Source: Acutalibacteraceae bacterium
Lineage (GTDB): Bacteria > Bacillota > Clostridia > Oscillospirales > Acutalibacteraceae
Direction: 5' to 3'
NCBI GenBank assembly: GCA_045589395.1
Contig: JAZNOZ010000004.1
Coordinates: 1,433-65,432 of the forward strand
Length of the DNA stretch: 64,000 bases
In this document: positions 3,537 to 43,223 of the stretch, piece after piece
Layout of the letters: every line of letters starts with the position of its first letter
Numbering within the stretch: the stretch's first letter is position 1
The notes under the pieces: generated by a model
What the model was told of the DNA's origin: nothing
Databases searched by the model: none
What the model saw: the letters and a program-made list of their open reading frames with translations, nothing else
Program-made: the position numbers and the translations under genes

Positions 3537-3888
3537 GGGGGCGAAAGGATTTCGACGGGGAATCTGAGTTTCGATAAGCGAGCAGAGGCGGGGCACCTCT
3601 ATAAAAGCTTCAAGTTATAAAATAAATAACAACAATAAAACAGTTTTAGCTGCTGCCTAAGTGCAACAGCCGTCATTCCCGAGAGTACCGCGGCTCGGTG
3701 CGTGGCGTCATTGAGCGGTGAACGTGAATGAAAAATAGCCTTGTATTTCATCACGCATCAAAGGGCTGGTCTTCTCCCGAGTGTGTTACTTCACGCAGGA
3801 GAAGACGAGATTAAATAAGTAACTACGCTCGTAGAAAGTCGTGAGGAGGGTTTTTCGGACAGGGGTTCGACTCCCCTCGCCTCCACCA
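3537..3888 (+). ncRNA. ssrA: tmRNA (transfer-messenger RNA)
   Basis: 5' end GGGGGCGAAAGGATTTCGACGGGG. 3' end GGACAGGGGTTCGACTCCCCTCGCCTCCACCA, a tRNA-Ala-like acceptor/T-arm. An internal tag frame ends ...NNNNKTVLAAA-TAA (stop at 3658-3660), with the probable resume codon GCT at 3607. Confidence 0.92.
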
Positions 3889-9110: not shown

Positions 9111-11060
9111 TTATTCTACCGTAATTCTGACTTCACCGTTTGAAATTACCGTAAGAGTCAGAGTTTTTGCGCTTTCGTTCCATTCAGTTTTCATTTCAGC
9201 GCCGTTGGTACCTGATGCAGTAACAGTCGGCTGTGTTTCGTAGCCTGTAAGCTCAATAACAGATGTTCTGAAATTTTTAGGATCGCTTCGTTTTTCACCG
9301 AAGATATATTTTCTTAAAAATTCATCTTCACTTTCAAGACCTGCACATATCTCATCGGTATCAAGCCTGAGATTGCACATCTCAATATCGAGCTTATCGC
9401 CGTTTTCCTTGAAAATAGCATAGGTGTGAGCCACAAGTGTTGTGTTAAGCTCAATTTTGCTGTCGGGGAGAGTGTATTGTACGGTCTGTTCACTGTTTAT
9501 GGTTATGTTTTCATTGCTGTTGAAAACATAAATATAGTCATTAATGTCAAACAGAACTCCGTCGCCGCAATATGTCTGTTCGTACATTTTGTTGAAAAAT
9601 GCTTTCTTGATGGGATTTATAAACAAGCCGCACAGCCAATAGTTAAGATCATTTATAATAATACTGTCGGGCAGAACCTCTTTTGCGTCTGAGTGTATGG
9701 GCAGAATGGGGATAACAAAATATCTGCCTGTTGACGGTACCCAGTCCTTTGTGCAGTCAAAGTACGGATTTTTAAAATCAATAAGTTCCTGATATAAATT
9801 AAAGGAATCGCAGTAAAGCCCCTGCAGAATATGTGCATCGTTGCCTCTTACCGCATAGGTTGCAGGGATATTCATTTTGAACGCAACCTTGATTTTTTCT
9901 TTTACCTGCTCTTTGTCGGGGACAGAGCCGTTGAGAATCATCTGATAGAAGGGATAAAGTATTTCAGAAGCGGTGGGTGAAAAACAAACCTCTCCGTTTA
10001 TGTACTGATAAATACCGCCTCTGCCTATTGTGCCTTCGATAGCATAAACTGTTGCACCTGCAACCATATCTGCAATCATATCTATGCCGTAAAGTGCAGG
10101 AGGATATTTTGCGGTGTATGCGAAATCAGGCTCGTTGGGTGCAACGCCTACATTGTCATATTCAAGGAAGCCCTCTTCATACCAGAGGAAATTTTCAAGA
10201 TTTACACCCCAGTTGCCGCAAACACCGTCAAGCCAGCAGCCGAGAATGTTTGACTGACTTGAAAAATGTCTGCCGTGACCGTTGTGCTTATCCATAATAA
10301 TTATATTTTCACTGTTTTCCTTCATCAGGTCATAAAGCTCCTTATCCTGAAGCAGGAAATTTACATAACAGGTCTTTTTCCAATAGATATACTCCATATC
10401 CTGCCAGATGAAAAGTCCGCCGTTTTCCGCACATGCTTTAATGCATGACTTCATTCTCGCAAGTATGTTTTTATTTACACCGTTATCTTCAGTAACAGTG
10501 TCGTATGCAAGCTTTTCGTTTGTTACACCGTTTGTTGAAAGCTCAACCTGTACAAAGCCGATAAGTGTTTTATGTCTTTTAAAAAGGTCGGAAAGCTCCT
10601 CCTGAGTAAAGGGATCTCGTTTCTTGTTTGTGCTGAAGCATTCTGACTGAAGCACAACAGGAACATTATATTCATCGGTAATTGTAAGCAGATCATCCCA
10701 GAAATCCAGCTGCTGTTGAGGAGTAAAATATGTTGTGCCCTCATCAATATAAATAACCGTGAAGTTTCTCATGTCCTCGGGCAGGGCATAATATGTTTTT
10801 ATTGCAAGCTCGGCATAAGCCTCGCCCGTTGAGGGACAGCCCCAATTCGGACAGTTTCTCATCATAAATAACGGATTTTCTTCATCAACATACATACGAA
10901 GTCCGTCAACCTGTTTTCTTGTTCTGATTTCTGTTGTTTCGGAAACTATCGGTGAAAGCTGTGAAAAACCTTGGCTATCGTTTTTTTCAAGGGCAATTAC
11001 TTCACAGGGAATGAGAATAAGATTGAGTAGTGCCAAGATAATACTGAGTGCCTTTTTCAT
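9111..11060 (-). CDS. secreted protein of unknown function (possibly glycoside-hydrolase-like)
   Basis: Start moved to ATG 11060, which gives the signal peptide MKKALSIILALLNLILIPCEV and an AGGAGG RBS 8 nt upstream. The ORF-track start 11171 adds 37 implausible residues. The function was not recognised. Confidence 0.65.
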   Translation of the reverse strand: MKKALSIILALLNLILIPCEVIALEKNDSQGFSQLSPIVSETTEIRTRKQVDGLRMYVDEENPLFMMRNCPNWGCPSTGEAYAELAIKTYYALPEDMRNFTVIYIDEGTTYFTPQQQLDFWDDLLTITDEYNVPVVLQSECFSTNKKRDPFTQEELSDLFKRHKTLIGFVQVELSTNGVTNEKLAYDTVTEDNGVNKNILARMKSCIKACAENGGLFIWQDMEYIYWKKTCYVNFLLQDKELYDLMKENSENIIIMDKHNGHGRHFSSQSNILGCWLDGVCGNWGVNLENFLWYEEGFLEYDNVGVAPNEPDFAYTAKYPPALYGIDMIADMVAGATVYAIEGTIGRGGIYQYINGEVCFSPTASEILYPFYQMILNGSVPDKEQVKEKIKVAFKMNIPATYAVRGNDAHILQGLYCDSFNLYQELIDFKNPYFDCTKDWVPSTGRYFVIPILPIHSDAKEVLPDSIIINDLNYWLCGLFINPIKKAFFNKMYEQTYCGDGVLFDINDYIYVFNSNENITINSEQTVQYTLPDSKIELNTTLVAHTYAIFKENGDKLDIEMCNLRLDTDEICAGLESEDEFLRKYIFGEKRSDPKNFRTSVIELTGYETQPTVTASGTNGAEMKTEWNESAKTLTLTVISNGEVRITVE

Positions 11061-11182
11061 TATAAAACCTCCTGAATGTGCAGTAGTGTTTTTATGGTGA
11101 AAAACTTTTGCTGAAAATATTATACAATTGTTTTTGTTCGCTTGCAATGTTTTTATGTAAATTCTGCACATTTATATATATA

Positions 11183-11382: not shown

Positions 11383-13266
11383 TTATTCCTCATCATCATC
11401 GTCATCAGCTTCTGCTGCAACAGCCTGAGCTGTTAAGGGCATATATTTTACGGGGATTTTATGAGCTTCTGCATAAGAATCGGCAGCTGAACCCTTTTCA
11501 CAGTATATAGTAAGCTTTTCGCAACCGGAGAAAGCATTTTCACCGATTTGGGTTACTTTCGGGGGAATTTTGATGCTGAGAAGACTTGAGCAGTTAAGGA
11601 ATGCTTCAGCACCGATTGACTGTGCATTCTTGGGTAAAATGATACCTGTAAGGCTTGTACAGCCTGCAAAGGCTCTGTTTCCTACAGTCTTCAGCCACTT
11701 GAAGATTCTGATGCTCTCCAGTGCTGTGAAATCACAGAATGCTTCATCTTCTATACTGTGTACAGATTTGCCGAGGTAAATAAGACGGGTAGTGGTATTT
11801 TTTACACCGCCTGCTGAAACCTTGCGCACGGGAAGCTTTCCAAGCTTTCTGGGAAGAGTTACAATTTCACCTGTTCTGCCGAATAAAACCAATTCAGCGT
11901 GGTTTTTTTCAAGCTTATAAAGACACTTTTTCTCAACAAGGTAGGAATCCTTATTCTCAACAAGCTCCTGAGGCATTTTAACAGCAGAAACGGTGTGTTC
12001 TTCTGTTTCATTTATATCGAGAGCTTCAAGGCGGGCAGGAAGAGCTTCCTTTTCCATTGAACGGATACTAATGAATGCATCGGGACTTACGGGGAAGTCC
12101 ATGCGGATTCTTGAAGATTTACAGTTAAGTCTTTTGAGTACACGATCGCTTGTTTTAGCAACAAGGCGTTCCTGTGAATCAGTAATCCCCATCTGCATTG
12201 AAACGGGAACTACGGTGTAGGGAATACCTTTGTAGTTTTTAAGAATTTTGCAAGGGATGAATTCTATATTTGTTTCGATTGAATTTTCAGTGCGGGTTAA
12301 CTGCACATGACACAGTGCTGTGTATTCGGTACCTTTCTTTTTTGAATTGGGAACTGACATAAGGTCGCCCAATGAAAAGGCAACGGGCTTGCCGTTAACC
12401 AGATTGAAATGCTGTAAGATATGGCTGTGTGAGCCAAGCACAAGGTCAAAGCCGAGAAGAGAGAGAGTTCTTGCAGTTTCAATCTGATTGTCTGTGAGCT
12501 CTTCTTCATATTCTTTACCCCAGAAGGGAAGACAGATTGTGTATTCTGCACCGTTTTTAATCATCTGTGTGCGGATTTCTGCAGCTGCATCAAAGGAGAA
12601 GGGATTAAGCAATGCAGCCTTGCCTTCTGCTGTCAGATTGCGGCGCATATTGTTATAGTTGCCGCCGAAAGCAGTAATGCCGACTTTAAAACCGCAGATG
12701 TCTATGATAACAAATTTGTCTGCTTCCTTTTCGCTTGTGCCGGTCTGAATTATGCCGAAATTACGGATATTTTCAATGGTTTCAAAAAGTCCTCTGACAC
12801 CAGTATCAAGGCAGTGGTTACCTTCGGTTGTCAGCATATCGAAGCCTGCTTCGGAGAGAGCTTCAAGGTATGAAACGGGGGCATTATAGTAACGGGGACC
12901 TTCGTGAGATAATATTTCACCCTGATAGGGAGCAGTGTGAGAAACAGGAGTTCTTAAGTTTGCTGCTGCAAAATCAGCAGATTGAAGAAGAGGCTTGATG
13001 TATTCAAAGCAAAGAGAGAAATCGTAGCCTCCGTCCTTCTTTCTGCAGGCATTTATGAGATCTTCCTGACAAAGCAGGTCACCGCCGAAAAGAAGCGATA
13101 CGGAATTTTTGCCGCTCAGTTTTGATGTATACATATTGGTGTTTTCTGCACCGGAATAACGGCGAAGCTTTGTGTGAGAAGCAAAGTCGATGTTTGTGCT
13201 TGCTCTGTCGCGCAATTCGTAGCTGGGAGCTTTGTACTCAAGCTTGTCAATCTGAGAATAATTCAT
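11383..13266 (-). CDS. CapA/PGA_cap-family protein fused to BspA-type leucine-rich repeats, with an acidic tail
   Basis: 627 aa. The N-terminal half has CapA-like features ('GGDLLCQEDL', 'TTEGNHCLDTG', 'GSHSH'). The C-terminal part carries ~23-aa LRR_5-type repeats ('IEDEAFCDFTALESIRI','VGNRAFAGCTSLTGIIL','IGAEAFLNCSSLLSIKI','IGENAFSGCEKLTIY'). It ends in AEADDDDDEE. No N-terminal signal peptide is visible. Confidence 0.8.
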   Translation of the reverse strand: MNYSQIDKLEYKAPSYELRDRASTNIDFASHTKLRRYSGAENTNMYTSKLSGKNSVSLLFGGDLLCQEDLINACRKKDGGYDFSLCFEYIKPLLQSADFAAANLRTPVSHTAPYQGEILSHEGPRYYNAPVSYLEALSEAGFDMLTTEGNHCLDTGVRGLFETIENIRNFGIIQTGTSEKEADKFVIIDICGFKVGITAFGGNYNNMRRNLTAEGKAALLNPFSFDAAAEIRTQMIKNGAEYTICLPFWGKEYEEELTDNQIETARTLSLLGFDLVLGSHSHILQHFNLVNGKPVAFSLGDLMSVPNSKKKGTEYTALCHVQLTRTENSIETNIEFIPCKILKNYKGIPYTVVPVSMQMGITDSQERLVAKTSDRVLKRLNCKSSRIRMDFPVSPDAFISIRSMEKEALPARLEALDINETEEHTVSAVKMPQELVENKDSYLVEKKCLYKLEKNHAELVLFGRTGEIVTLPRKLGKLPVRKVSAGGVKNTTTRLIYLGKSVHSIEDEAFCDFTALESIRIFKWLKTVGNRAFAGCTSLTGIILPKNAQSIGAEAFLNCSSLLSIKIPPKVTQIGENAFSGCEKLTIYCEKGSAADSYAEAHKIPVKYMPLTAQAVAAEADDDDDEE

Positions 13267-13422
13267 TGACGGGTTCTCCTTTTGTAATTTTTGTTAAAAG
13301 CAATATTTTTAACGCACAAAATATATTTCCGGTACATTATATCAAACTGAAAATGGCATTTCAAGACTTTATTTAAAAAAGAAGCATTAATATAAAAATG
13401 ACACGAATAATGTAAAAATATA

Positions 13423-13451
13423 TTGCACTTTAATTTTGTATGTGATATACT
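13423..13451 (+). promoter_or_regulatory. sigma-A-like promoter for the tandem ATP-grasp gene
   Basis: TTGCAC at 13423-13428, a 17-nt spacer, then TATACT at 13446-13451. It lies in the 250-bp divergent region shared with the CapA-LRR gene. Confidence 0.5.
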
Positions 13452-13516
13452 GTAACGGAAAAAATCAGCTCGGTTGTTATAAAGCATTAAAAAACAAGAA
13501 GTGAAAGGGAATTGTT

Positions 13517-15949
13517 ATGGGTTCCAAAAAGGTTGTTAGAAATGTTAAAAATGCTGTAGTTAATCTGCGTGCCTTCCCCTTGGCTTCTGCCGGTTATGTA
13601 GGTGAGGAAGCAAAAGGTTGGGTCAGAAGTGTATACAGAAATTACCGTAAAGCATTACAAGGCGGCGACTTTTCTGTCGGTCAGGTCAGATGGGCAGTAA
13701 AGCACGGCTTTTTACCCGCTCAGGTTGAAAAGCTCGGTATTACCGAAGAAAAATTAAAGGATACCATATCCGCAAAGGATTATGCTTTTCTTCGTCCTTT
13801 GAACGGAATTTACAGTAAGTGGATTTCAGACTTGGTAACGGTTCATACTATTTTCAAGCCTTTCCGCGATGTAATGCCCAAGTGTTATTTTCAGATAAAT
13901 AAGCGTGACGGCAAAACCCAGATTATCAATCTGCAGGATAAAAACGGCGGCGATACAATTAATGATGTTGTTATGCTTTTGCAGGAAAAAAAGATTCTTA
14001 CCGTAAAGCGTTCAGTCAGCAGAATGAGCTGGCTTCTGACATATGACGGCAGAAATTATTATATAGACGGTGAGAAGCTTCCTTTGGATGATCTCAAAAA
14101 GCGTATAACAAGATTCGGCGGTATCGTTGTTGTCTGTGAAGCAGTAGCCGCTTCAAAGGAATTTGTGGGCGGTAAGCTGAGATTGGTTGTTTTTAATGAG
14201 CACGGAAATAATCCCGTAATCGGTGAGTCATATATCCGTTTCCGCAAGGTTCACAGTCTTCAGAATAATAGGGCATATAAAAATGCAATGTCAGGCATTG
14301 CTCTTGAAAAAAATGAAGAGCTTTTCCGTACAAGCATCAAAGCTAAGAAAGGCACTGTTGATGAAAATATAAACAGTTTAGCAGAAAACAATGTTGAAGA
14401 AGGCTTGACTCAGGAGTTTAACTGGGGTGAACGCAAGGCTATATTCTACACGGTAGACAGAGAAACAGGTGAGTTTAATCTTATTGATTCCTGCAAGGGG
14501 ATGAATGAAATAAACCCGACAACAATGGAAGTTCTTCCGAAAGGCATTCCCTGTTGGCAGGAAATTGTTGATACTATAGAAAGATTATGTCGCTTTGTTC
14601 CTCAGCTTGAATTCTTCGGACTTGAAATTATCCTTACCGATGACGGCTTCAGAATCACAAGAATTATGAACCATCCGGGATATCCCCAACGAATTCCCTT
14701 CAGCAAGGAAACATCTGCTTATCTTAAGAAGAAGATGATTCAGAAGAAGGAATCCTACACACCGGCAAAGATTTTTGCACGCGGATGCCACAAGGCTAAG
14801 CTTCAGATCCGTGCAGGCTTCTGCAGAATGTTCTTCCCCGAAACTCTGCTTCCTTATCTTTCCATCCGTTGGTTCCAGGATCAGTGGAAGGATTTCAAGA
14901 CAAATAAGGATACAACACTCAAGGAAAAGCTCTGGGCTGTTAAACACGGATTTATCTCCTACAGACTTCATCAGTACGGTATAACTGAAGAAAACTGGAA
15001 GAATTATATTTCAGACTTTGAATACAAGTGGCTTCGTCACATCAATCCCAAGTACCGCCATTGGATGGAGGATAAGATAACAGTAAAGTATATCTGTTCC
15101 GAATATAACCATTGCTTCCCCGAATACTATTATCATATAAGTCTTAAGGACGGTAAAAACAAAATTCTTCCTATGATGGACTGTCCTGAAGGATATGACG
15201 GTGTATATGAAGATATTTTCCGTCTTGTAAAGGAAAAGGGCTCACTTGCTCTTAAGCCCGATGAAGGCTCACACGGCAACGGCTTCTTTAAGTTCTCATA
15301 TGACGGCGAAAAATACTATCTTAACCATCAGGAGGCAACCGAACAGCAGGTTCTTGATATTCTTCAGGATGAAAAGAACCAGTATCTTATCACAGAGTAT
15401 ATAGATATGCATCCCGAAATCAAGCGTATTTATGACGGTGCTGTTAATACCATCCGTATGCTTGTGTTCAAAAAGGACGGTAAGAATCCTCAGATCGGTA
15501 ATGCTTATATGCGTTTCGGCTCCACCCGTACAGGTGCTGTTGATAACATGGGTGCCGGCGGTATGTATGCCCGTATTGATGTTGAAACAGGCCGTTTCTA
15601 TGATGCTAAAATAATTGAGGAAAATGAAATCAAATCCTGTCTGTATCATCCCGATACACACGAAAAGATTGACGGTTATCTGCCCAACTGGGAAAAGGTA
15701 AAGCAGGATGTTCTTGATGTTGCAAGAGAAATTCAGCAGCTCGAATGGTTCGGCTTTGACCTTGCAGTAACTCCCGACGGCTTGAAGTTCCCTGAAATCA
15801 ACAGATTCCCCGATTATCCCGCAATCGAGAAGTACAGCCCCGCAACCATTGACTATCTGCTTTATAAGCTTGAGCTTAAGAAGAAGCTCTACGGTTATGA
15901 TAAGAACCGCGGCAACAAGCTGTTCAAGCTTCCCGACAGAAATAAATAA
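13517..15949 (+). CDS. tandem ATP-grasp protein (sugar-transfer-associated ATP-grasp type) with a degenerate N-terminal module
   Basis: 810 aa made of two homologous halves, each opening with 'W(A)VKHGF...YGITEE'. The C-terminal half keeps 'LKPDEGSHGNGF', 'NTIRM', 'DNMGAGGMYARIDVETG', 'HPDT' and 'WFGFDLAV...PEINRFP'. The N-terminal half has lost these motifs. Confidence 0.75.
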   Translation: MGSKKVVRNVKNAVVNLRAFPLASAGYVGEEAKGWVRSVYRNYRKALQGGDFSVGQVRWAVKHGFLPAQVEKLGITEEKLKDTISAKDYAFLRPLNGIYSKWISDLVTVHTIFKPFRDVMPKCYFQINKRDGKTQIINLQDKNGGDTINDVVMLLQEKKILTVKRSVSRMSWLLTYDGRNYYIDGEKLPLDDLKKRITRFGGIVVVCEAVAASKEFVGGKLRLVVFNEHGNNPVIGESYIRFRKVHSLQNNRAYKNAMSGIALEKNEELFRTSIKAKKGTVDENINSLAENNVEEGLTQEFNWGERKAIFYTVDRETGEFNLIDSCKGMNEINPTTMEVLPKGIPCWQEIVDTIERLCRFVPQLEFFGLEIILTDDGFRITRIMNHPGYPQRIPFSKETSAYLKKKMIQKKESYTPAKIFARGCHKAKLQIRAGFCRMFFPETLLPYLSIRWFQDQWKDFKTNKDTTLKEKLWAVKHGFISYRLHQYGITEENWKNYISDFEYKWLRHINPKYRHWMEDKITVKYICSEYNHCFPEYYYHISLKDGKNKILPMMDCPEGYDGVYEDIFRLVKEKGSLALKPDEGSHGNGFFKFSYDGEKYYLNHQEATEQQVLDILQDEKNQYLITEYIDMHPEIKRIYDGAVNTIRMLVFKKDGKNPQIGNAYMRFGSTRTGAVDNMGAGGMYARIDVETGRFYDAKIIEENEIKSCLYHPDTHEKIDGYLPNWEKVKQDVLDVAREIQQLEWFGFDLAVTPDGLKFPEINRFPDYPAIEKYSPATIDYLLYKLELKKKLYGYDKNRGNKLFKLPDRNK

Positions 15950-16010
15950 TTGTATAAAAATCCCCTCTGCTGTTGATTGCAGAGGGGTAAATTTTATTCA
16001 GAACAGTAAT

Positions 16011-16045
16011 AAAAGCGTACCCGACACAGTCGGTACGCTTTTTAT
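16011..16045. terminator. bidirectional terminator between convergent ATP-grasp genes
   Basis: aaaagcgtaccgac-acag-tcggtacgcttttt, with an A-run before and a T-run after. A second hairpin, cccctctgc..gcagagggg, lies at 15962-15987. Confidence 0.8.
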
Positions 16046-16070
16046 AAACTGTTTTTTCAGCTTTCGATTT

Positions 16071-17300
16071 TCACCACAGGTATTTGCGGATAACATCCAT
16101 TGTGCCCTTTTTCAGAGTAAGATAGGGGGATGTGAACAGCATAGGTCCGGGATTGCCGTTCTTTTCGATAAGCATGGGACCTTTTTCGGATATAGCAACA
16201 TCCCAGCCTACATAGCCCTCAATCTTTGTTGTGGTAAGTATATCGTTTATCATCTCACAGGCTTCTTTGAAGTACGGAATCTTTATGCCCTTGAACTTTA
16301 TGCCTGTATCAGGATGCTTTTTGAAGAACAAGCCTTCGCCGTCTGCCGCATCTGTAATAATTGTTCCTGTTGCAAGGTCAATATTTGCAACCATACCGCC
16401 GCTGTGGAAATTGTCTACATGCTTACCCACTCTGCCGATTCTGAGAGAAGCGTAGATAATATCATGGTCCTTGCCGTCTGCAGTTACTTTTTTTCTGTTG
16501 GATGAAACTGTAGCGAAGCGGATTGTGTTTACAGATGTGGGACACAGTCTGCACAATTCAGGATGCTGGATAAGGTATTCTTCAATAATAGCATCAGGAA
16601 GACTTACAAGCTTATCAAAAACTTCTCCTATGCTGTTATCATCAAAGGGGAAAACTTCAACACCGTGACCGCCTGAACCTGTTATGGGTTTATAAATTAC
16701 TTTATTTTTACCCTTGAAACGGGCAATGAAATCTTCCTTTGTAATGTCTTTGTTATAACACCATTCACGGTTAAACCATTGTCCGAAATCTTTGCTGTTA
16801 GTCAATTTTGTGCGTATGGGAGCACCTAATTCTCTGGGAGGATTGTATCTGTCACGCAGCATTTTTGTGTGTCTGCTGAGAAAGAGTTCCTTCTGCATAT
16901 GTGCGCTCAGCTCATACATATGATAGAAATAATATTCACTCCAATAGGCACCTGTGCGTTTTTTACATTCTTCATATTTTTCCAACGCCTGCTCATATGA
17001 CCAGCCTGTAGCATGGATAACCTTTGCCATATATTGCAGCTGATATCTTTCCTTTTCGAGCTTTTGATCGGCTCTTTTTTGGACAATGGCAACATATTTT
17101 GCGCCCTTTACATCAATCGGAACCTTCCAGAATGAATATGTATAATAATCATCGAAGGGGATACCGTATTTTTTTCTGTCGGTTTCCATTTTGGCGGAAG
17201 CCTGTTCAAAGCTCCAACCGGTTTTCTTCATAACCGCCTGAATATATTTGTTTTCGGTTTCAGAGTACTTGTTATTTTGTGTTTCCATAGCTTTATACAT
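16071..17300 (-). CDS. ATP-grasp ligase (ATPgrasp_ST-like) with a duplicated N-terminal helical motif
   Basis: 409 aa with 'IYKPITGSGGHGVEVF', 'NTIRFATV', 'DNFHSGGMVANIDLATG', 'HPDTG' and 'WDVAISEKGPMLIEKNGNPG'. The N-terminus has two 'TGWS(F/Y)EQA' repeats. Confidence 0.75.
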   Translation of the reverse strand: MYKAMETQNNKYSETENKYIQAVMKKTGWSFEQASAKMETDRKKYGIPFDDYYTYSFWKVPIDVKGAKYVAIVQKRADQKLEKERYQLQYMAKVIHATGWSYEQALEKYEECKKRTGAYWSEYYFYHMYELSAHMQKELFLSRHTKMLRDRYNPPRELGAPIRTKLTNSKDFGQWFNREWCYNKDITKEDFIARFKGKNKVIYKPITGSGGHGVEVFPFDDNSIGEVFDKLVSLPDAIIEEYLIQHPELCRLCPTSVNTIRFATVSSNRKKVTADGKDHDIIYASLRIGRVGKHVDNFHSGGMVANIDLATGTIITDAADGEGLFFKKHPDTGIKFKGIKIPYFKEACEMINDILTTTKIEGYVGWDVAISEKGPMLIEKNGNPGPMLFTSPYLTLKKGTMDVIRKYLW

Positions 17301-17322
17301 CTCTTTTTAATTGTAATAATTT

Positions 17323-17925
17323 TCAGTTTTCGTGCTGTTCATTCTGGTATTCAAGTAAATCCGAGGGAGCATTGAAATCTCTGGTGTCATCCTCAATGAC
17401 AATATAGTTTTTGCCTATTTCACGGGATTCTATCGGTAAGCCCTGCATTGAGTGATAAACCTCCCATCCGATACATTCCTTTAATTCGTTTTTCAGGAAT
17501 AATTCACGGACACGGTTCAGATGGCTTTTGAAAAACACATCATCTGCAATTTTTATTGCAAATATCTTTTTTGTGCTTCCGAAGGTAAGCACTGTATCTG
17601 TTTTATGCTCTATAATACAGCGCATTGCATTTTCCGAGTACAGAACATCACCGTAAAGGAAACAGACATCGGGCTCGATTAATTCAACCGTAAATCTGTC
17701 AATTTCAAGAACATTGTTCTGCGGCTCATAGCGGGTAGCACCCTCAACCTGAAGCTGAGGATTATGAGAGGTGATATAAATTTTTGCAGAATCATCAAGA
17801 GAGTGAATAAGGTCGCAGGTTCTTTCTAAAAGCGTCTTGGAGCCTATCTGAATCTGACACTTTTCTATACCCTGAAAGTGCTTCCAGCGCTGTCCCTTGC
17901 CGTCTGCCATAATTATATATTTCAT
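17323..17925 (-). CDS. small nucleotidyltransferase-like protein (MobA/LicC-like NTP-transferase fold)
   Basis: 200 aa. The N-terminal 'MKYIIMADGKGQRW' resembles the (L/I)xxAxGxGxR nucleotide-binding signature. The start of the next gene lies 22 nt downstream. Confidence 0.55.
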   Translation of the reverse strand: MKYIIMADGKGQRWKHFQGIEKCQIQIGSKTLLERTCDLIHSLDDSAKIYITSHNPQLQVEGATRYEPQNNVLEIDRFTVELIEPDVCFLYGDVLYSENAMRCIIEHKTDTVLTFGSTKKIFAIKIADDVFFKSHLNRVRELFLKNELKECIGWEVYHSMQGLPIESREIGKNYIVIEDDTRDFNAPSDLLEYQNEQHEN

Positions 17926-17965
17926 AAATATCTCATCCTAATTTTGCTTTTTCTTATAACAGAGC

Positions 17966-19012
17966 TTATTTTTTTATAACATTATGGGCTTTATAGAATC
18001 TGCCGAGTTCTCCGTTTCTCTGACCGCCCCAAAGCTGAATTATGTTGACACCTGAAGAGGTGTTTGCTTCTATTACATAGAATCCGTCATTTGTAACAAG
18101 AATATCCCATGCAACAAAGGATAAGTACGGGAATTTGTTTGCTAAAGCAAGAACATCTGCTTTAATTTTTTGCCAATTCGGAATAAGTGCCCCCTTGATT
18201 TGTGCCCCGGTGTTCGGATGCACATCGTAGACATCAAGGTTATGAAGAGTTTTTGCTTCACTGAGAGCACCTGTTTCTAAGTCAATACAGGAAACAAGAC
18301 CGCCGCGGCTGCCGTTGTCAACGGGGAAGGTTTTGTCTGTGCCTATACGCTGTACCGCAAAAAATACCTTGAATTCCTGTGTGTCGGGGTCGCGTAAGGT
18401 AATAAGTCTTATTGTGTTTGCTGTGCGGTAATATATTCTGTTGAGGTATTCACCCTGACAGATATATTCCGATAAAAACCAGTTTTTGGAGGCTTTTAAG
18501 AAATCGAGCAGCTCTTTGTCTGTTTTCTCCTGTTTATTGACAAAAAACTTTCTGTTCTCATATGTGATAAGATTAACACCGTTGCCTTTGCCGAAGTTTA
18601 TAGGCTTCATAATTGCTATTGCATTTTCACGGATGCATTCAAGTATCTTTTCATCTGTTGCGATAGTGTTATCTGCCATAACAGTGACCTTGCCGACCTT
18701 TGTTACATAGGTTTCGGGTACATTCGTGTACTGCTTGAGCATATCGGCGCAGACAATTTTATTATTAAGAATAAAGCTGTAATCGCCGTTTATTCCCCTT
18801 GAGCGGTACCAGTCAAATTCGGCAAGATATTCCTTTGAGCCGCGGTGCTTGAAATCATAAATCATATACTGGTCAACAAGATAACCGTGAAGATTAAGCC
18901 ATAGCTTTGTCCATGGAGCTACCTTGAAATGGTCTTTTGCAAATAAGATTTTTGTAAACCAGATATAAACAAGTTTAAGCTTTTCTATTAAATTTTTTAC
19001 AAATTCTTTCAT
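17966..19012 (-). CDS. ATP-grasp ligase (ATPgrasp_ST-like)
   Basis: 348 aa with 'IMKPINFGKGNGVNLI', 'NTIRLITL', 'DNGSRGGLVSCIDLETG', 'HPNTG' and 'WDILVTNDGFYVIEANTSSG'. Confidence 0.75.
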   Translation of the reverse strand: MKEFVKNLIEKLKLVYIWFTKILFAKDHFKVAPWTKLWLNLHGYLVDQYMIYDFKHRGSKEYLAEFDWYRSRGINGDYSFILNNKIVCADMLKQYTNVPETYVTKVGKVTVMADNTIATDEKILECIRENAIAIMKPINFGKGNGVNLITYENRKFFVNKQEKTDKELLDFLKASKNWFLSEYICQGEYLNRIYYRTANTIRLITLRDPDTQEFKVFFAVQRIGTDKTFPVDNGSRGGLVSCIDLETGALSEAKTLHNLDVYDVHPNTGAQIKGALIPNWQKIKADVLALANKFPYLSFVAWDILVTNDGFYVIEANTSSGVNIIQLWGGQRNGELGRFYKAHNVIKK

Positions 19013-19095
19013 ATTTTCCGTACCTTACACAATAATGATAAAGTTTATAGGCTATTTTAGTGAAAATTTATTGTATTACCGCTAATGATAAAATA

Positions 19096-20148
19096 TCAGT
19101 CATCTTTTTTCAGGGGAGCAGTACCCGAAATGCCGGCTGCAGATACAGCACTTCTGTCCGTAATGCCGTTATACACTCTGAATGCACGGATTGTATAGGT
19201 ATAGGTTTCACCGGGGGTAACCTTTGTATCTTCAAAATTGTCGGTCTGGCTTCCTGCAACAATTCCGATTCTCTGGTAGGATTGCTTATCCTTTTTTCTG
19301 TACACAATATAGCCTGTTGCCTCTGGTACGCAATGCCAGCTTACTGTAAGCCCTCCCTGTGAGGGGACAACCTCTTCAGGACGGGGAGCTTTTATCTCGC
19401 TCTGAATACCCTTTTGTTCGGCAGCGGCGTATTTCTGCTGATATTTGCGGACAACATCCTTTGCATCGCCAAGCATCAGCATTTCACCCTTGTCAAGCCA
19501 GAGAACACGGTCGCAAAGAGTGGAAAGTCTGCCCATATCGTGGGATACTATAACTACTGTATGCTTATCGTCAGTGATGAGCTCTTTCATTTTTGTGTAG
19601 CTCTTCTGTCTGAAAGCCACATCACCTACACTTAAAACCTCGTCAATGAGAATAACCTCTGTTGTCAGATGAACGGCGATTGAGAATGAAAGCTTTGAGC
19701 GCATACCGCTGGAATATGTGCGGACAGGCTTGTCTATAAAGGAGCCTAATTCTGCAAATTCAACTATCTTGTCAAACTGTGCATCTATTTCCTTCATAGA
19801 AAAGCCTAGCTGAAGACCGATAAGATATATGTTATCGCGGCCCGGCATTTCTGTCATAAGGCTTGAGCTTAATGCAAGAAGAGAAACGCGCACATGTTCT
19901 TCCTTTTCAATACTGCCGCTGTCGGGCTTGATAATTCCGCCCAAAGCTTTAAGCAGAGTTGATTTGCCGCTTCCGTTTCTGCCTATGATGCCTAAAATTT
20001 CACCTGGGATAATATCAAAGGATATCCCGTTCAGAGCGCAGAAATTTGTGCGGCGTTTGCCGAGCAGCTTATCTGTTTTTGAGCCTTTTCTTTTAGTGAG
20101 CGTGCGGTAGAGCACCTTTACATCATTTACTTTTATTACCTGTTCCAT
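19096..20148 (-). CDS. ABC transporter ATP-binding protein (TagH/Wzt-like) with a C-terminal FN3-like beta-sandwich
   Basis: Walker A 'GRNGSGKST', signature 'YSSGMRSKL', Walker B 'VILIDE'. The C-terminal ~95 aa, 'GLTVSWHCVPEATGYIVYRKK...TPGETYTYTIRAF', look like a fibronectin-III-type domain. Confidence 0.85.
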   Translation of the reverse strand: MEQVIKVNDVKVLYRTLTKRKGSKTDKLLGKRRTNFCALNGISFDIIPGEILGIIGRNGSGKSTLLKALGGIIKPDSGSIEKEEHVRVSLLALSSSLMTEMPGRDNIYLIGLQLGFSMKEIDAQFDKIVEFAELGSFIDKPVRTYSSGMRSKLSFSIAVHLTTEVILIDEVLSVGDVAFRQKSYTKMKELITDDKHTVVIVSHDMGRLSTLCDRVLWLDKGEMLMLGDAKDVVRKYQQKYAAAEQKGIQSEIKAPRPEEVVPSQGGLTVSWHCVPEATGYIVYRKKDKQSYQRIGIVAGSQTDNFEDTKVTPGETYTYTIRAFRVYNGITDRSAVSAAGISGTAPLKKDD

Positions 20149-20154
20149 AGTATA

Positions 20155-20937
20155 TCAAGAAACCTTTATATAATGTTGTTCGTAGCGGGTTACCACAAAA
20201 ATACCGCTGACTGATAAAATAACAGAGAAAACAAAAATAAGAGCAACGGGAAGCACGGACATATTTATATTATACAGCAAAACATTTCGTGCTTCGTGGA
20301 ATAAGCTGCCTACGGGGTTTATTTTTAAGATTAAATTGCCGACATTTCCCTGAATTCTGCTGTCCAATGCATAGAAAACACCTGAAATATAGAACAGAAG
20401 CCTCAGAAGAACTGATGTGACCTTTTTTATGTCGGGCAGATATACACCTATATGCAGTAGCCATACACAGCAGCCGAAGGTAAACAGGAAGAAGGTTATC
20501 AGTATAGGAATAAACTGCAATGCCGTAAAACCGACGGGGATACGGTAGTATACCATAAATACCATAACAATCAAAAAGTTTATAAACATTTTGAAGGCAT
20601 TGTAAAGCAGAGTGGAAAAAACGAGAATATATTTCGGCATATAAACTCGATGAAGTAGTCCCGAGTAGTGTTTTACAAGGCTTACGCTGCTAAGTGCCGA
20701 GCGCTGGAAGAAATTCCACATCATAAGACCTGAAGAGATATATGCCATAAGGTAGGTCATATTTCTGTTAAATATGATGGCAAAAAGAAAAACATATATA
20801 GCCATAAAGAGGATAGGCTCAATAACCCACCAGAGCCATCCCAGCCGCATACCCGAAATTTCGGAGGTAAGCTGGCTGTATGCGGAATAACAGCAGAAGC
20901 TCCAATATTTTTTACAATTCTTAAATACATCTTTCAT
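20155..20937 (-). CDS. ABC-2-type polymer-export permease (TagG/Wzm-like)
   Basis: 260-aa protein with six hydrophobic spans. It ends 6 nt before the ATPase gene, and the size and layout are typical of the ABC-2 membrane family. Confidence 0.8.
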   Translation of the reverse strand: MKDVFKNCKKYWSFCCYSAYSQLTSEISGMRLGWLWWVIEPILFMAIYVFLFAIIFNRNMTYLMAYISSGLMMWNFFQRSALSSVSLVKHYSGLLHRVYMPKYILVFSTLLYNAFKMFINFLIVMVFMVYYRIPVGFTALQFIPILITFFLFTFGCCVWLLHIGVYLPDIKKVTSVLLRLLFYISGVFYALDSRIQGNVGNLILKINPVGSLFHEARNVLLYNINMSVLPVALIFVFSVILSVSGIFVVTRYEQHYIKVS

Positions 20938-20942
20938 TTCTG

Positions 20943-22067
20943 TTAAAATCCTTTATAAATACGCGGAATTCGCTTGGATATTCCGCAGATAATTTCATAA
21001 TTTATTGTTTGTGCAAGCTCTGCAACTTCATTTACTGAAAGCTCTTTACCGAAAATGATTACCTCATCACCCGTGCAGACCTCTTTTATTTCAGTTACAT
21101 CAACACAAAGCTGATCCATACACACTCTGCCCACTATGCGAGCTCTTTGACCTCTTATGATTACATTGCCTCTGTTTGACAATAAACGCGGAATACCGTC
21201 TGCATATCCTGCTGGAATTGTTGCTATTCTTTTCTGCGAGGGAGCTGTGTATGTTCTGCCGTAGCTTACCGTTTCATTCTTTTCAACAGTTTTTATGGTT
21301 GATACTACGGAGTGCAAGGACATCGCAGGCTTTATGCCCACGGGAGGCTGCAGCTCTTCTGACGGAGATAAGCCGTAAAGAATGATTCCTGCTCTTACAG
21401 CCGAGGAGGTTTTATCAAAATCTCCTAACATTGCGGCAGAGTTGCAGCAATGCTTTATTTTGAACGGATGTTTTTTCTCAAGCTTCTCAACAGCACTGAG
21501 AAAACGCTTATACTGCTCTGCAGTAAATTCTTTATCGGCTTCTTCACCGCTGTCTGCAACGGCAAAGTGCATAAAAATACCTTCTGTATCCAGGTTTTTA
21601 AGAGCAAGAATTTTTTCGGCTTCTTCAATTGCGAAGCTGTCTTCATTTCTGAAGTTAAGACCGATTCTGCCCATACCCGTATCCAGCTTCAGGTGTGTTA
21701 TGACCGTGACACCTGCTTTTTTTGCATGGAAATCCAGCTGCTGTGCATAGTCGTAAGACATAACGCATTGACTTATATTGCTGTTTGCCAAGCGCACAGC
21801 GCAGTCGGCAGGAGTATAGCCTAGTATCAGTATCGGCTTATCAATTCCCGCAAAGCGCAGCTCCTCTGCCTCTAAAAGATTTGAAACCGCAAAACCAAAA
21901 GCCCCTGCTTTATCTAAAGCTTGGGCAACCTGTATTGCTCCGTGACCGTATGCATCGGCTTTCACTACGGCATATATATTCTGTTGAGTTATATTTTTTA
22001 TAATATTAAGATTATTTACAATGGCATCAAGGTCGATTTCGGCCCACGCCCGGCGAAAAGGTTCCAT
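20943..22067 (-). CDS. alr: alanine racemase
   Basis: 374 aa. PLP-lysine motif 'AVVKADAYGHGA' and C-terminal 'GRVCMDQ' are typical of Alr. Its stop lies 5 nt before the permease start. Confidence 0.92.
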   Translation of the reverse strand: MEPFRRAWAEIDLDAIVNNLNIIKNITQQNIYAVVKADAYGHGAIQVAQALDKAGAFGFAVSNLLEAEELRFAGIDKPILILGYTPADCAVRLANSNISQCVMSYDYAQQLDFHAKKAGVTVITHLKLDTGMGRIGLNFRNEDSFAIEEAEKILALKNLDTEGIFMHFAVADSGEEADKEFTAEQYKRFLSAVEKLEKKHPFKIKHCCNSAAMLGDFDKTSSAVRAGIILYGLSPSEELQPPVGIKPAMSLHSVVSTIKTVEKNETVSYGRTYTAPSQKRIATIPAGYADGIPRLLSNRGNVIIRGQRARIVGRVCMDQLCVDVTEIKEVCTGDEVIIFGKELSVNEVAELAQTINYEIICGISKRIPRIYKGF

Positions 22068-22330
22068 TAAATTTTCCCCGATTCGAGCTTTTTATATACG
22101 CAATAAAAATTATAAATGTATGATTATCAGTTTTTGTTAACCTTATTTTTATATATTACAAAATGTAATTTTTATGCCGAGAACATTATATCATACAAAA
22201 TGGTAATATACAAGCCTATTTTATTTATTTTTGCTGTACTTTGCAAATTCAAATCCCGCATAATTATACTTTACTTATCAATAATATAATGCTATGATTA
22301 ATATAAATATAAAATACTCAGGAGATTTTT

Positions 22331-24509: not shown

Positions 24510-25289
24510 ATGAAAGGTGAAGAATTTTTCAATGCAATCAATATGATAGATGATGACCTTATTAATGAGGCAGCTTCTGTCAGAAAAACAAAGAGAAAAA
24601 AGAAAACAGTATATTTTACTGTTGCCGCCTGTCTGGCAGTTTTTATGTGTGCAACGGTGTTGTTAAATGAATTCGGTGTTTTTTCGCCATATGAAACAGC
24701 AGATGATGTTGCCCAGGGTACGGGTACAACAAATGAAATTGCAGAAAATGTTTTAGTAGGCGATACAGACAATATGTTCCCCGAAAGCGGCTCAGCACAA
24801 GACAGTACGGGGGCGGCTTACGAAAATCAGGAGCCCGAAGATCCTACTGTAATTTATATTCCTGAAACTGCCCCTACCGAGGTATATGTGAGCGGAGCTT
24901 CAGGTGAGAATACAGGCTCAAAGGGTGAAGGAACTGTTGAATCTGCAACTGCAGAGGGCAGTTCAACCCCACCGTATGAAGTCGTAACGGGCGAGGATGT
25001 AAGCTATCCACCTATGTCAGAGGAAACAACAACGGGTAAAACTCAGGAGTATAACGGTAACAGCACAATGTTTAAGGCTAAAATAATTGAAATCAACGGT
25101 AATTCGGTTATGGTCGAGCCGCTTGACAGTGTTGTCAGCAGCTCTTCGGACAGAATAGTTTTTTCTAATGCAAGGCTTGAAGAATTAGATGTAAAAAAAG
25201 GCGATGTTGTAATTATAGTTTATGACGGACTTATCATGGAATCATATCCTGCACAGATATGTGCTTCCTCATGGTCTTTGGCTCAGTAG
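24510..25289 (+). CDS. putative anti-sigma factor (single-pass membrane protein)
   Basis: Overlaps the sigma gene's stop. Short cytoplasmic N-terminus, TM 'VYFTVAACLAVFMCATVLL', a Ser/Thr/Glu-rich linker, and a small C-terminal beta domain. Confidence 0.55.
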   Translation: MKGEEFFNAINMIDDDLINEAASVRKTKRKKKTVYFTVAACLAVFMCATVLLNEFGVFSPYETADDVAQGTGTTNEIAENVLVGDTDNMFPESGSAQDSTGAAYENQEPEDPTVIYIPETAPTEVYVSGASGENTGSKGEGTVESATAEGSSTPPYEVVTGEDVSYPPMSEETTTGKTQEYNGNSTMFKAKIIEINGNSVMVEPLDSVVSSSSDRIVFSNARLEELDVKKGDVVIIVYDGLIMESYPAQICASSWSLAQ

Positions 25290-25308
25290 GTATGAAAGGA
25301 GAAAAAAT

Positions 25309-26565
25309 ATGAAAAAGCTTTTAAGTGTATTTTTAGCAATACTTGTCTTTTGTGTCGGATTATCCTCCTGTACAGACACAAACAAGGAAGAAACAACGGT
25401 TGATGAAAAAACAACCGTACAGCTTTCTCAGACACAGCGTGAAGAAATATCGGATATTGTAGGCTCTCTTGCCCCCTTGTGTATTATAGACAACACAGAC
25501 AGCACTTTTATCAAAGCCAACGAGAGCTGCCGCAAGGAGCTTATTGATGCTTTCAGTATTTCAGATGTGACAGATAAGAGTGCATCAGGTAAATTCTATA
25601 CTGTTTATTCAATGGATGAAAATAAGAAAGAAACGGTATATACCTATTATCCCGAGGCCCAAGTGCTTGTGAGAGATAATACCGCATATACAATGTCGCA
25701 AAGTGCAAAGGAAAAATTCAACGAGCTGATAAGCCCTGTGTCAGCAGGAGAAGATGCAATATCATCTGAACAGCAGCAGGAGGAATTTATATATTTCCGT
25801 ATAGATATGATTTACCCCGACTGCATAATCTGTCACAGTGGGGTAGGGAATCCTTATATTTCATACAGATTCAACATTGAGCTGTCGGAGGAATTTTGTA
25901 TCGGGGATTATGTTGACATTATCTCAGTTGACGGAAAATATCTGATGTCCGAAGATGAAAAAATCTGTGAAGCTGATGCAAAGGAAGTACGAATCACAAC
26001 ATTTGAAATACAAGAGGGAGTAGCATATAAGCCTGTTATATATCTTTATCCCGAAAGACAGGGTGAGGCAGAGGTTAAACTCAATGTAAACGGTGAGCTT
26101 ATCTGCTCTTATCCTCTTTATAATGACGGCTGGAGCGTTACAGCCTCTCCCGACGGTACATTGACAGACGAAAACGGCACATACGATTACCTTTTCTGGG
26201 AAGCAGATATGAGTACGGTAGAGTTTGATATGTCCGAGGGCTTTTGCGTAAGCGGCGACGAAACGGAAGAATTTTTCCGTGAAAAATTGAGCTTTATAGG
26301 CTTGAATGAGAAAGAAATTGCAGATTATCTCGAATTCTGGCTGCCGCATCTTACAAAAAATGCATATAACTATATAACATTCCAGGCCGATTGCTATACA
26401 GATAATGCAAAGCTTACAGTCACCCCCACACCCGACAGCGTAATAAGAGTGTATACGGTAATAATGCCTTTAGATGAAGAAATACAGGTTACCGAGCCCG
26501 TTTTAGAGCCGCTTGAAAGAACAGGCTTTACAGTTGTTGAATGGGGCGGAGGAATAGTTAAATGA
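25309..26565 (+). CDS. lipoprotein of unknown function
   Basis: Start at ATG 25309 gives 'MKKLLSVFLAILVFCVGLSSC' with an LSSC lipobox. RBS AAGGAG. Confidence 0.6.
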   Translation: MKKLLSVFLAILVFCVGLSSCTDTNKEETTVDEKTTVQLSQTQREEISDIVGSLAPLCIIDNTDSTFIKANESCRKELIDAFSISDVTDKSASGKFYTVYSMDENKKETVYTYYPEAQVLVRDNTAYTMSQSAKEKFNELISPVSAGEDAISSEQQQEEFIYFRIDMIYPDCIICHSGVGNPYISYRFNIELSEEFCIGDYVDIISVDGKYLMSEDEKICEADAKEVRITTFEIQEGVAYKPVIYLYPERQGEAEVKLNVNGELICSYPLYNDGWSVTASPDGTLTDENGTYDYLFWEADMSTVEFDMSEGFCVSGDETEEFFREKLSFIGLNEKEIADYLEFWLPHLTKNAYNYITFQADCYTDNAKLTVTPTPDSVIRVYTVIMPLDEEIQVTEPVLEPLERTGFTVVEWGGGIVK

Positions 26566-42903: not shown

Positions 42904-42931
42904 TTTCTTCCCTCCTAAAAAAATTTTGCCT

Positions 42932-43050
42932 CTGTCACACGGCGTGCAGGCGGACTGTGTCGCACGGGCATACCGCTTAATGCTGCTCGGTTCCCCGCCT
43001 GACATGGTTCGCGGCGCTCCGTCGCACAGGACCAACACGCCGCATGACAG
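42932..43050 (-). ncRNA. ffs: signal recognition particle RNA (small 4.5S-type)
   Basis: The minus strand reads ...CAUGUCAGG-CGG-GGAA-CCG-AGCAGCAUUAAG..., the domain IV symmetric loop plus GGAA tetraloop. The termini CUGUCAUGCGGCGUG / CACGCCGUGUGACAG pair. It sits upstream of dnaX as in other Firmicutes. Ends are approximate. Confidence 0.85.
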
Positions 43051-43223
43051 AAGCAAAATCCAAAAAATTATTGATTGAGCGCTTTTATATACGCTGCCCG
43101 AATATTATAATATAATTATTTTCATTTGGCAAGTCTTTTTTTGAAAAATCCTGTCTTGTAAAACAAAATATAAAGATGTATAATATTTCTATTCTACGAA
43201 GATTAAAGGGGAAGTGATGTTAT

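Follow-up and report, generated by a model that had tools for sequence, protein, structure and literature searches.

In Bacillus subtilis and Staphylococcus aureus, wall teichoic acid is made and exported by TagO/A, TagB/TarB, TagF/TarL, TagD/TarI, TagGH and LCP and is D-alanylated by DltABCD, and to our knowledge amino acids reach teichoic acids in all studied Firmicutes through this extracellular Dlt machinery. Here we analyzed a block of eight genes at positions 11,383 to 22,067 of a 64,000-nucleotide stretch (the whole stretch is called the window below) of contig JAZNOZ010000004.1 from an Acutalibacteraceae bacterium, assembly GCA_045589395.1. The block encodes an alanine racemase (alr), a TagG/TagH-like ABC exporter, three ligase proteins of the Pfam family ATPgrasp_ST (PF14397), a nucleotidyltransferase (NT) of 200 amino acids (aa) and a PGA_cap protein with LRR_5 repeats. 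The reading which we favor, with a confidence that lies somewhat above even, is that the block is a lineage-specific and rearranged version of a widespread, uncharacterized module of Gram-positive gut anaerobes, which would decorate a teichoic-acid-type wall polymer with amino acids or a short peptide in the cytoplasm, before its ABC export. The argument starts from gene families, folds, conserved linkage and selective constraint, which were observed, and from these we infer each chemical step.

The relatives of the block share with the wall teichoic acid pathway a TarB/TarL-like enzyme, an enzyme of cytidylyltransferase fold, TagG/TagH and LCP in one operon, whereas the window keeps TagGH and the NT and has no TagB/F or LCP gene. 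The NT is neither TagD nor a recognizable TarI, and the core of the operon is formed by two to five ATPgrasp_ST ligases, to which some loci add Mur-type ligases, PGA_cap and racemases. Amino-acid addition would here be cytoplasmic and driven by ATP-grasp enzymes, while Dlt acts outside the cell. For cytoplasmic amide decoration before ABC export, the closest characterized analogue is the C-terminal domain of Cj1438 of Campylobacter jejuni HS:2, which performs the cytoplasmic, ATP-dependent amidation of a polymer-incorporated sugar acid in an ABC-transporter-dependent pathway. It differs in being an enzyme of a Gram-negative capsule, with a single ligase domain, of ATP-grasp fold, fused to GT2 and with serinol-phosphate or ethanolamine-phosphate as nucleophile.

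The poly-gamma-glutamate synthetase PgsBCA/CapBCA and MslH resemble the module in that PGA_cap partners an amino-acid ligase, and in relatives of the block it is fused to Mur-type or ATP-grasp ligases; unlike the Pgs system, the window has no PgsB or PgsC, and its PGA_cap protein is soluble and carries LRR_5. The cytoplasmic Mur pathway (Alr, Ddl, MurC-F) and the D-Asp ligase/racemase pair of Enterococcus faecium share the logic of a racemase together with stepwise ATP-dependent ligases acting on a nucleotide-activated precursor, followed by transfer to a lipid carrier. MurF-like ligases and Ddl are present in related loci, whereas the ligases of the module are mostly ATPgrasp_ST, the transferase is TagB/F-like and not MraY, and the exporter is TagGH. 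Among solved folds, the intact module of the tandem ligase comes closest to RimK/LysX-type ligases, which extend a carboxylate of a macromolecule with amino acids; in contrast to them ATPgrasp_ST has its own N-terminal helical domain and stands here also in tandem with a pseudo-module. No such system was described in the literature searched on PF14397/ATPgrasp_ST, on sugar-transfer associated ATP-grasp and on ATP-grasp with teichoic acid.

Canonical operon in related genomes

A total of 84 loci was assembled from neighborhood look-ups of tandem-ligase homologues along with a scan of species-representative genomes; their open reading frames (ORFs) were called, clustered and re-scored with hidden Markov models (HMMs) built from the clusters. 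The loci (L numbers below) come mainly from Anaerovoracaceae, other Clostridia and Coriobacteriia, and the named sources are Emergencia, Senimuribacter, Anaerofustis, Anaerostipes sp. 992a, Collinsella and an Eggerthellaceae metagenome-assembled genome (MAG). For the counts of components, the 46 loci were used in which the tandem ligase has no less than 5 kb of flank on either side. The commonest order, seen in dozens of species, is a Glyphos_transf phosphotransferase (GPT), the 348-aa ligase (G348), the 200-aa NT, the tandem ligase, TagG, TagH and LCP, with G348, the NT and the tandem ligase as its conserved core. G348 was present in 38 of the 46 loci, the NT, TagH and a GPT in the same operon in 37 each, TagG in 31 and LCP in 23. 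Extra ligases of the type of the 409-aa ligase (15/46), Mur-ligase-LRR_5 fusions (7/46), LicD (5/46), PGA_cap (5/46) and alr (2/46) were less frequent. By Pfam and NCBIfam the GPT best matches TarB/TarL (CDP-alditol phosphotransferase) and LCP best matches TagU; a Bac_transf priming enzyme lies immediately upstream of the GPT in L071, L042 and L077, and a GT2 occurs in L065. Since GPT, TagGH and LCP, with Bac_transf or GT2 in some cases, stand in the operon across related loci, the family appears from its gene content to be a wall-polymer pathway of teichoic-acid type that has an amidoligase module built into it. These frequencies speak against the glycan-free pathway parallel to Dlt or Pgs which a preliminary description of this DNA had proposed.

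The exporter of the window appears to belong to the same set. The permease clusters with the TagG partners of 55 loci, and both exporter genes are orthologous to the TagG/TagH genes which there stand beside GPT and LCP. The ATPase has the ABC_tran domain and in NCBIfam best matches TagH (197 bits against an equivalog cutoff of 320) and Wzt, with DrrA scoring lower. The permease gene lies 6 nt from the ATPase gene; its product has about six hydrophobic segments and matches the Wzm model with E 4.6e-11, and by Pfam it is only weakly ABC-2, its ABC2_membrane score of 22.9 bits being under the cutoff of 26.9. An ABC-2 exporter, as named in the preliminary description, is thus probably present. At its C-terminus (residues ~255-350) the TagH-like ATPase is extended by about 95 aa that are beta-rich and weakly fn3-like (E 0.006, below cutoff), and TagH proteins of canonical loci, of about 258 aa, are without such an extension. 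By analogy with the carbohydrate-binding domains of Wzt, the extension could recognize the terminal decoration of the polymer.

A pump of this class could also serve a small secreted peptide-like or nucleotide-peptide metabolite, built by stand-alone ATP-grasp ligases and exported by a DrrAB-like ABC-2 pump. We consider such a product improbable: in most loci the orthologues of G348, NT, tandem ligase, TagG and TagH share an operon with TarB/L-like and LCP genes, TagH and Wzt are the best-scoring models for the ATPase, neither an ORF for a precursor peptide nor a further secondary-metabolite gene was found, and the variable ligase cassette described below fits a surface antigen. What speaks for it is that ATP-grasp ligases make dipeptide antibiotics, that ABC-2 pumps also export drugs (DrrA being among the lower-scoring matches) and that the window contains no gene for a phosphotransferase, a glycosyltransferase or LCP. 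A reading as a peptide made on ribosomes and then modified post-translationally (RiPP), from the combination of an MslH-like protein, ATP-grasp and ABC exporter, was rejected; no credible or conserved precursor ORF exists in the intergenic gaps, and the partners are wall-polymer enzymes.

Enzymes of amino-acid and peptide metabolism recur in the relatives. An Asp/Glu racemase (Asp_Glu_race) lies inside the locus in two further lineages, of which L070 adds NlpC/P60 peptidases and L068 adds Ddl, a decarboxylase dependent on pyridoxal phosphate (PLP) and an L,D-transpeptidase, and MurF-like ligase-LRR_5 fusions also occur in related loci. Given that racemases were recruited in three lineages, the use of D-amino acids by the pathway is plausible. 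The general notion of an amino-acid- or peptide-bearing surface polymer, put forward in the preliminary description, is supported by these racemases, Ddl and MurF-like ligases, by the fusions of PGA_cap to ligases and by the L,D-transpeptidase and NlpC/P60 genes of relatives. In L068 (12414-22112) the tandem ligase is immediately followed by the L,D-transpeptidase (YkuD, joined to fn3 and to choline-binding repeats), DUF819, the PLP-dependent decarboxylase, Ddl, the Asp/Glu racemase and a 990-aa Mur-ligase-LRR protein, a set that looks like a second, peptidoglycan-like peptide assembly kit.

With such neighbors the ligases might instead act on precursors of peptidoglycan and place D-amino acids, as side chain or cross-bridge, on muropeptides that are linked to a nucleotide or a lipid. 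A model exists in Enterococcus faecium, where the ATP-grasp D-aspartate ligase Asl is paired with the racemase Rac, and the alr, Ddl, Asp/Glu racemase, MurF-like ligase, L,D-transpeptidase and NlpC/P60 genes of related loci would fit it, as would the fusion of the NT to a ligase given below. We give this little credence, as the commonest partners (TarB/L-like phosphotransferase, TagGH, LCP) act on secondary wall polymers and not on lipid II, and no linked MraY, MurG or MurJ-type gene was found.

The window belongs to a small lineage, which also includes L001, L046 from a sheep-rectum Clostridia MAG (tandem ligase 88% identical) and at least 10 metagenomic contigs. Read along the forward strand, its gene order is PGA_cap-LRR (leftward), tandem ligase (rightward) and then, all leftward, the 409-type ligase, NT, G348, TagH, TagG and alr; this rearranged layout, with alr inside the operon, recurs on at least 10 contigs. 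Relatives carry an extra ATPgrasp_ST gene of 526-540 aa upstream of alr, so that alr lies between a ligase gene and tagG, with a spacer of about 290 bp upstream of alr. In the window this extra gene is cleanly absent, and no remnant of it was found upstream of alr. The number and identity of ligases vary among close relatives, the terminal ligase being swapped and a further ligase gene present or absent, as expected for a variable surface antigen.

In L050, L067 and L076 (Emergencia timonensis and relatives) a tandem ligase of about 828 aa, 43-44% identical, adjoins leuS. Several loci with typical Clostridia-type gene order (L033, L035, L036, L051 and L079) come from bins labeled Alistipes, Flexilinea, Bacteroidaceae, Absicoccus or Bacteroides, and are probably mis-binned contigs and not true occurrences in those taxa.

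Components of the block

Three proteins clearly exceed the gathering threshold of ATPgrasp_ST (31.4 bits), namely those of 810 aa (126.6 bits), 409 aa (147 bits) and 348 aa (129.2 bits), which confirms the family named in the preliminary description; its four modules with a common motif set, in contrast, became three intact modules and one pseudo-module. The N-terminal half of the 810-aa tandem protein is without K-P..G.G.G, NTIR, DN..GG, WD and E.N, which are missing from this half in every aligned homologue, and it has a disordered insert at residues 257-299. The ATP-grasp motifs (Lys with Gly-rich loop, NTIR, DN..GG and the D...E.N Mg ligands) are present in the three other modules. In a comparison with the closest relative, the N-terminal half has a ratio of nonsynonymous to synonymous substitution rates (dN/dS) of 0.16 and the C-terminal half one of 0.015. 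As the motifs are missing in all aligned homologues and dN/dS is 0.16, the N-terminal half is best described, from sequence, as a recognizable duplicate kept as a conserved pseudo-enzyme domain and not as a product of decay. The C-terminal half is near-invariant, and its residues K580, E627, D748, E760 and N762 are invariant in the homologue alignment; the top Foldseek matches of this intact module are RimK, Ddl, PsnB and LysX/ArgX. An exact-sequence look-up of the 810-aa protein gave no match, and its 166 close homologues come mostly from Anaerovoracaceae and other Eubacteriales MAGs. A sequence search of the PDB with the 348-aa ligase also gave no match, and no solved PF14397 structure was found.

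The 348-aa ligase is the most conserved ligase of the family and is 97% identical to that of a close relative. The 409-aa ligase shares only 41% identity with the ligase found in its place in close relatives, against 79-97% for the flanking genes, and by this comparison appears to be a variable cassette that was swapped relative to them; cassette-like variation of a terminal ligase is typical of surface-antigen loci. The 409-aa protein has two N-terminal helical repeats (residues ~20-45 and ~90-115) with the motif TGWS(F/Y)EQA, which match the UBA-like model TAP_C with 23.2 bits (cutoff 21.3) and are not found in the 348-aa ligase.

With 17.5 bits (E 0.005) the 200-aa protein falls short of the Pfam cutoff, and a PDB sequence search with it returned noise only, yet many of its 677 homologues match PF01128 (IspD) or PF12804 (NTP_transf_3). 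Its AlphaFold model has a pLDDT (predicted local distance difference test) of 93, and Foldseek matched the model with probability 1.0 to ST0452, LicC, PntC, KdsB, IPCT and IspD; RmlA was also matched. The N-terminal motif is MADGKGxRW in the window and M-A-D-G-x-x-x-R-W is invariant in the family. The protein is accordingly modeled as an IspD/LicC/MobA-like nucleotidyltransferase of GT-A-like fold, and its first description as NTP-transferase-like is supported by AlphaFold and Foldseek in spite of the Pfam score. The genes for NT and tandem ligase overlap by 1 nt in L003 and L013, and in an Eggerthellaceae MAG (L052:9317-12292) the tandem ligase itself carries a complete NT copy (residues 1-193, 243 bits), with a separate NT copy two genes upstream of the fused one. 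Because of this coupling and fusion, the tandem ligase probably uses or feeds a nucleotide-activated intermediate.

The PGA_cap-LRR protein of 627 aa has PGA_cap (PF09587) at residues ~58-303 (165 bits) and LRR_5 at ~493-586 (80 bits). Neither signal peptide nor transmembrane or hydrophobic segment was found in it, and because of this the protein is predicted to be soluble and cytoplasmic; the other soluble components of the block likewise have no transmembrane segments. In L003 and L013 PGA_cap-LRR forms one protein with an ATPgrasp_ST domain, and in P0309 and P0369 it does so with Mur ligases; since they are fused to ATP-dependent ligases, these relatives should be cytoplasmic too. MslH, a characterized PGA_cap homologue acting on lasso peptides, epimerizes the C-terminal residue of a peptide, and the same C-terminal epimerization was proposed for CapA in poly-glutamate synthesis. 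A unit of ligase plus epimerase would explain the fusions. The anchoring or transport role that had been assigned to the CapA-like protein does not agree with its missing signal peptide and membrane segments, with the ligase fusions or with the epimerase activity of MslH.

The MslH catalytic and metal set (Asp11, Glu44, Asn87, His88, Asp91, His259, His261 and His295) was compared with the window protein. In the HMMER alignment to MslH (8gq9), the metal ligand Glu44 is replaced by Arg105, while the equivalents of N87/H88/D91 and H295 are kept as N150/H151/D154 and H282; D63 is kept by motif, MslH His259 and His261 remained unaligned, and Phe248 stands in place of the His in the family motif PHWG. 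The PGA_cap relatives outside the window lineage all keep the Glu in the family alignment. We speculate that the PGA_cap domain of the window lineage may be non-catalytic by reason of its Glu to Arg change; the gene is under purifying selection (dN/dS 0.11). It should be noted that the homologue search with the whole 627-aa protein was dominated by LRR_5 repeats of giant surface proteins and left four useful full-length relatives, and that the profile-based PDB search was LRR-dominated as well, the MslH alignment being obtained from a truncated query.

The LRR_5 repeats are also found fused to ATP-dependent cytoplasmic enzymes (MurF-like ligases, ATPgrasp_ST, PGA_cap), as in L065:13446-15449, L068:8019-10004 and 19140-22112, P0297, P0309 and P0369, although BspA-type LRR_5 domains are usually found in surface proteins. 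The fusions point to LRR_5 as a docking domain that would act in the cytoplasm in systems of this kind. In the window the MurLRR HMM has a match in the 627-aa protein, and there only in the LRR part; genes of PgsB or PgsC type are absent, and there is no Mur-ligase family among the Pfam hits.

The presence of PGA_cap, with RimK as top structural neighbor of the intact module and no backbone-forming enzyme in the window, may bring to mind a polyamino-acid or D-amino-acid polymer having no glycan or phosphodiester backbone, made by RimK- or cyanophycin-like ATP-grasp polymerases, anchored or transported by CapA as in Pgs systems and exported by ABC-2. This is very unlikely in our view, because the PGA_cap protein has no membrane segment and no Glu44 equivalent, the PgsB and PgsC partners are missing, and the conserved NT and the usual TarB/L-like partner would have no role in such a pathway.

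The racemase gene is canonical, with TIGR00492 at 390.9 bits (cutoff 168) and matches to both Ala_racemase_N and Ala_racemase_C. Throughout the lineage 3-6 nt separate alr from tagG (5 nt in the window), and only this lineage has alr in this position, in 3 of the 85 loci. The linkage of alr to the exporter is confined to this one lineage, and this is one half of a condition that the preliminary description had named as counting against its reading, the other half being that this alr is the only one of the genome. It is possible, though we rate it as clearly the lesser chance, that alr is simply a housekeeping alanine racemase at the head of the operon and D-Ala no building block, the rest still being a wall-polymer amidoligase module. 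The canonical score and the rarity of the linkage would agree with this, as would the finding of no second alr within the 64-kb window and the spacer of relatives, which could hold a promoter of its own. Opposed to it are the short gap kept throughout the lineage, the position of alr between a ligase gene and tagG in relatives, and the two other lineages which independently carry Asp_Glu_race in homologous loci, one of them with Ddl. A PHP gene beside alr was considered as a CpsB-type phosphatase and rejected, as it scores as a HisJ-family histidinol phosphatase.

Layout of the block and its surroundings

All eight ORFs (8/8) were recovered on re-check as first described, along with the minus-strand gaps of 5, 6, 83, 40 and 22 nt and the 250-bp divergent region; the convergent gap is 121 nt. 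The features are collected in Table 1. The best sigma-70-like site of the divergent region, a consensus match only, is TTGAAA-17-TATAAT with an extended TG (13364-13336), and it faces the PGA_cap-LRR gene. The GC-rich hairpin is likely a bidirectional terminator separating both convergent transcripts. Against the 88%-identical relative, dN/dS is 0.03-0.17, that is, purifying selection acts on all genes of the block, its degenerate domains included. An Rfam scan of the locus gave no match, i.e. no riboswitch or T-box.

Table 1. Features of the block and their window coordinates
Feature	Coordinates	Strand	Basis
PGA_cap-LRR, 627 aa, acidic C-terminal tail	11383..13266	-	Pfam, MslH 8gq9 alignment, family alignment
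AT-rich divergent promoter region (putative), 250 bp	13267..13516		consensus match only
N-terminal half of 810-aa protein, degenerate ATP-grasp-like module	13517..14851	+	motif check, alignments
C-terminal half of 810-aa protein, intact ATPgrasp_ST amidoligase module	14852..15949	+	Pfam, invariant residues, Foldseek
GC-rich hairpin, T-runs on both strands	15962..15987		
409-aa ATPgrasp_ST ligase, last operon gene	16071..17300	-	Pfam
200-aa nucleotidyltransferase (NT), predicted IspD/LicC/MobA-like fold	17323..17925	-	homologues, AlphaFold model, Foldseek
348-aa ATPgrasp_ST ligase (G348)	17966..19012	-	Pfam, clustering
350-aa TagH/Wzt-like ABC ATPase	19096..20148	-	Pfam, NCBIfam
260-aa TagG/Wzm-like ABC-2 permease	20155..20937	-	Pfam, NCBIfam, clustering, hydrophobic segments
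374-aa alanine racemase (alr), first operon gene in window	20943..22067	-	TIGR00492, Pfam
Region upstream of alr, homologous to the spacer between alr and the 526-540-aa ligase of relatives	22068..22330		

The Pfam hits of the window proteins include no glycosyltransferase, Bac_transf or Mur-ligase family and none of DltA (AMP-binding), DltB (MBOAT), DltC or DltD, in agreement with the earlier statement that the window is without glycosyltransferase, priming phosphotransferase and dlt genes. A six-frame HMM search of the whole window found no TagF-like/Glyphos_transf, LCP or LicD gene. By Pfam, the remaining genes of the window are housekeeping genes or glycoside hydrolases.

A GH98 glycoside hydrolase gene at 9111-11171 (-) lies directly beside the block and is missing at the same position in the close relatives L046 and L085, where a metallophosphoesterase gene abuts the PGA_cap-LRR gene; the comparison points to an insertion or deletion that happened recently at the border of the locus. 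Elsewhere in the window are a tmRNA gene at 3537-3888 (+; 165.7 bits) and a small SRP (signal recognition particle) RNA gene at 42941-43038 (-; 57 bits). The latter is overlapped by a 667-aa ORF with TTG start at 41053-43056(-), whose listed start is probably too far upstream. An ORF of 447 aa at 25222-26565 (+) has no Pfam match at E <= 0.001.

Proposed pathway and its meaning

In the pathway that we favor, the polymer would be phosphodiester-linked and assembled on a lipid carrier in the cytoplasm. The 200-aa NT would first make an NDP-activated, probably CDP-activated, small phospho-compound, which a TarB/TarL-like phosphotransferase would install or polymerize on the lipid-linked acceptor, as the gene linkage in most relatives suggests; in the genome of the window the gene of this phosphotransferase would have to be elsewhere, unlinked. 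Going by family and fold, the 348-aa ligase, the C-terminal module of the tandem protein and the 409-aa ligase would each add one amino acid via an acyl-phosphate, and alr, from its position in the operon, would supply D-Ala for at least one of these steps. PGA_cap-LRR and the pseudo-ATP-grasp half would have an accessory or scaffolding part in the ligase complex. In relatives having the full MslH catalytic set, PGA_cap would probably epimerize the newly added C-terminal residue. As the Glu to Arg change and alr are found in the same lineage, one may speculate that free D-Ala from alr replaces this on-polymer epimerization in the lineage of the window. TagGH would then export the finished polymer, and an LCP enzyme encoded elsewhere would attach it to peptidoglycan.

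Several observations weigh against this pathway. The lineage of the window has no TagB/F-like, LCP, LicD, priming transferase or glycosyltransferase gene in 64 kb, and because of this the link of this genome to a teichoic-type polymer is drawn from the orthology of its genes to those of other loci. For TagH and TagG, the scores are under equivalog or gathering cutoffs, and the linkage of alr, seen in one lineage, could be that of a housekeeping gene. The RimK and Ddl matches are distant (15-16% identity, E ~1e-4, TM-score ~0.5). In the literature searched, no ATPgrasp_ST (PF14397) member has a demonstrated substrate or biochemistry, so that the name amino acid ligase is a family-level assignment only; within that literature, the earlier remark that the family is biochemically uncharacterized was correct. 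Finally, the tandem ligase of L050, L067 and L076 stands without 348-aa ligase, NT and phosphotransferase, which indicates that the tandem protein can occur apart from the module.

The same genes might also form a Mur-like assembly line, an order of events that we regard as unlikely. The NT would make a CDP-ester of a carboxylate-bearing phospho-metabolite (e.g. phosphoglycerate, phospholactate or phosphoserine), the ligases would lengthen its carboxylate one residue at a time into a peptide containing D-amino acids on this nucleotide handle, a TagB/F-like enzyme would transfer or polymerize the phospho-(acyl-peptide) unit onto the lipid carrier and TagGH would export it. MurF-like ligases would share the carboxylate extension in some lineages, and the TagB/F-like transfer would resemble that of MraY with muropeptides. 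If true, this would mean a new class of wall polymer, its peptide possibly cross-linked into peptidoglycan by transpeptidases, and a Dlt-independent route for D-amino acids onto teichoic acids.

The wall-polymer chemistry of the dominant gut Clostridia is almost unknown, and these polymers are the main surface for phages, host immunity and antimicrobial peptides. The operon offers candidates for a first biochemical assignment of ATPgrasp_ST (PF14397) and suggests cytoplasmic roles for the PGA_cap and LRR_5 domains, and the module has culturable carriers in Senimuribacter sp. DSM 106208, Anaerofustis butyriciformans HA2171, Anaerostipes sp. 992a and Collinsella tanakaei ET10. The prediction from this module is a route in the cytoplasm, independent of Dlt, by which amino acids or peptides would be placed onto wall polymers.

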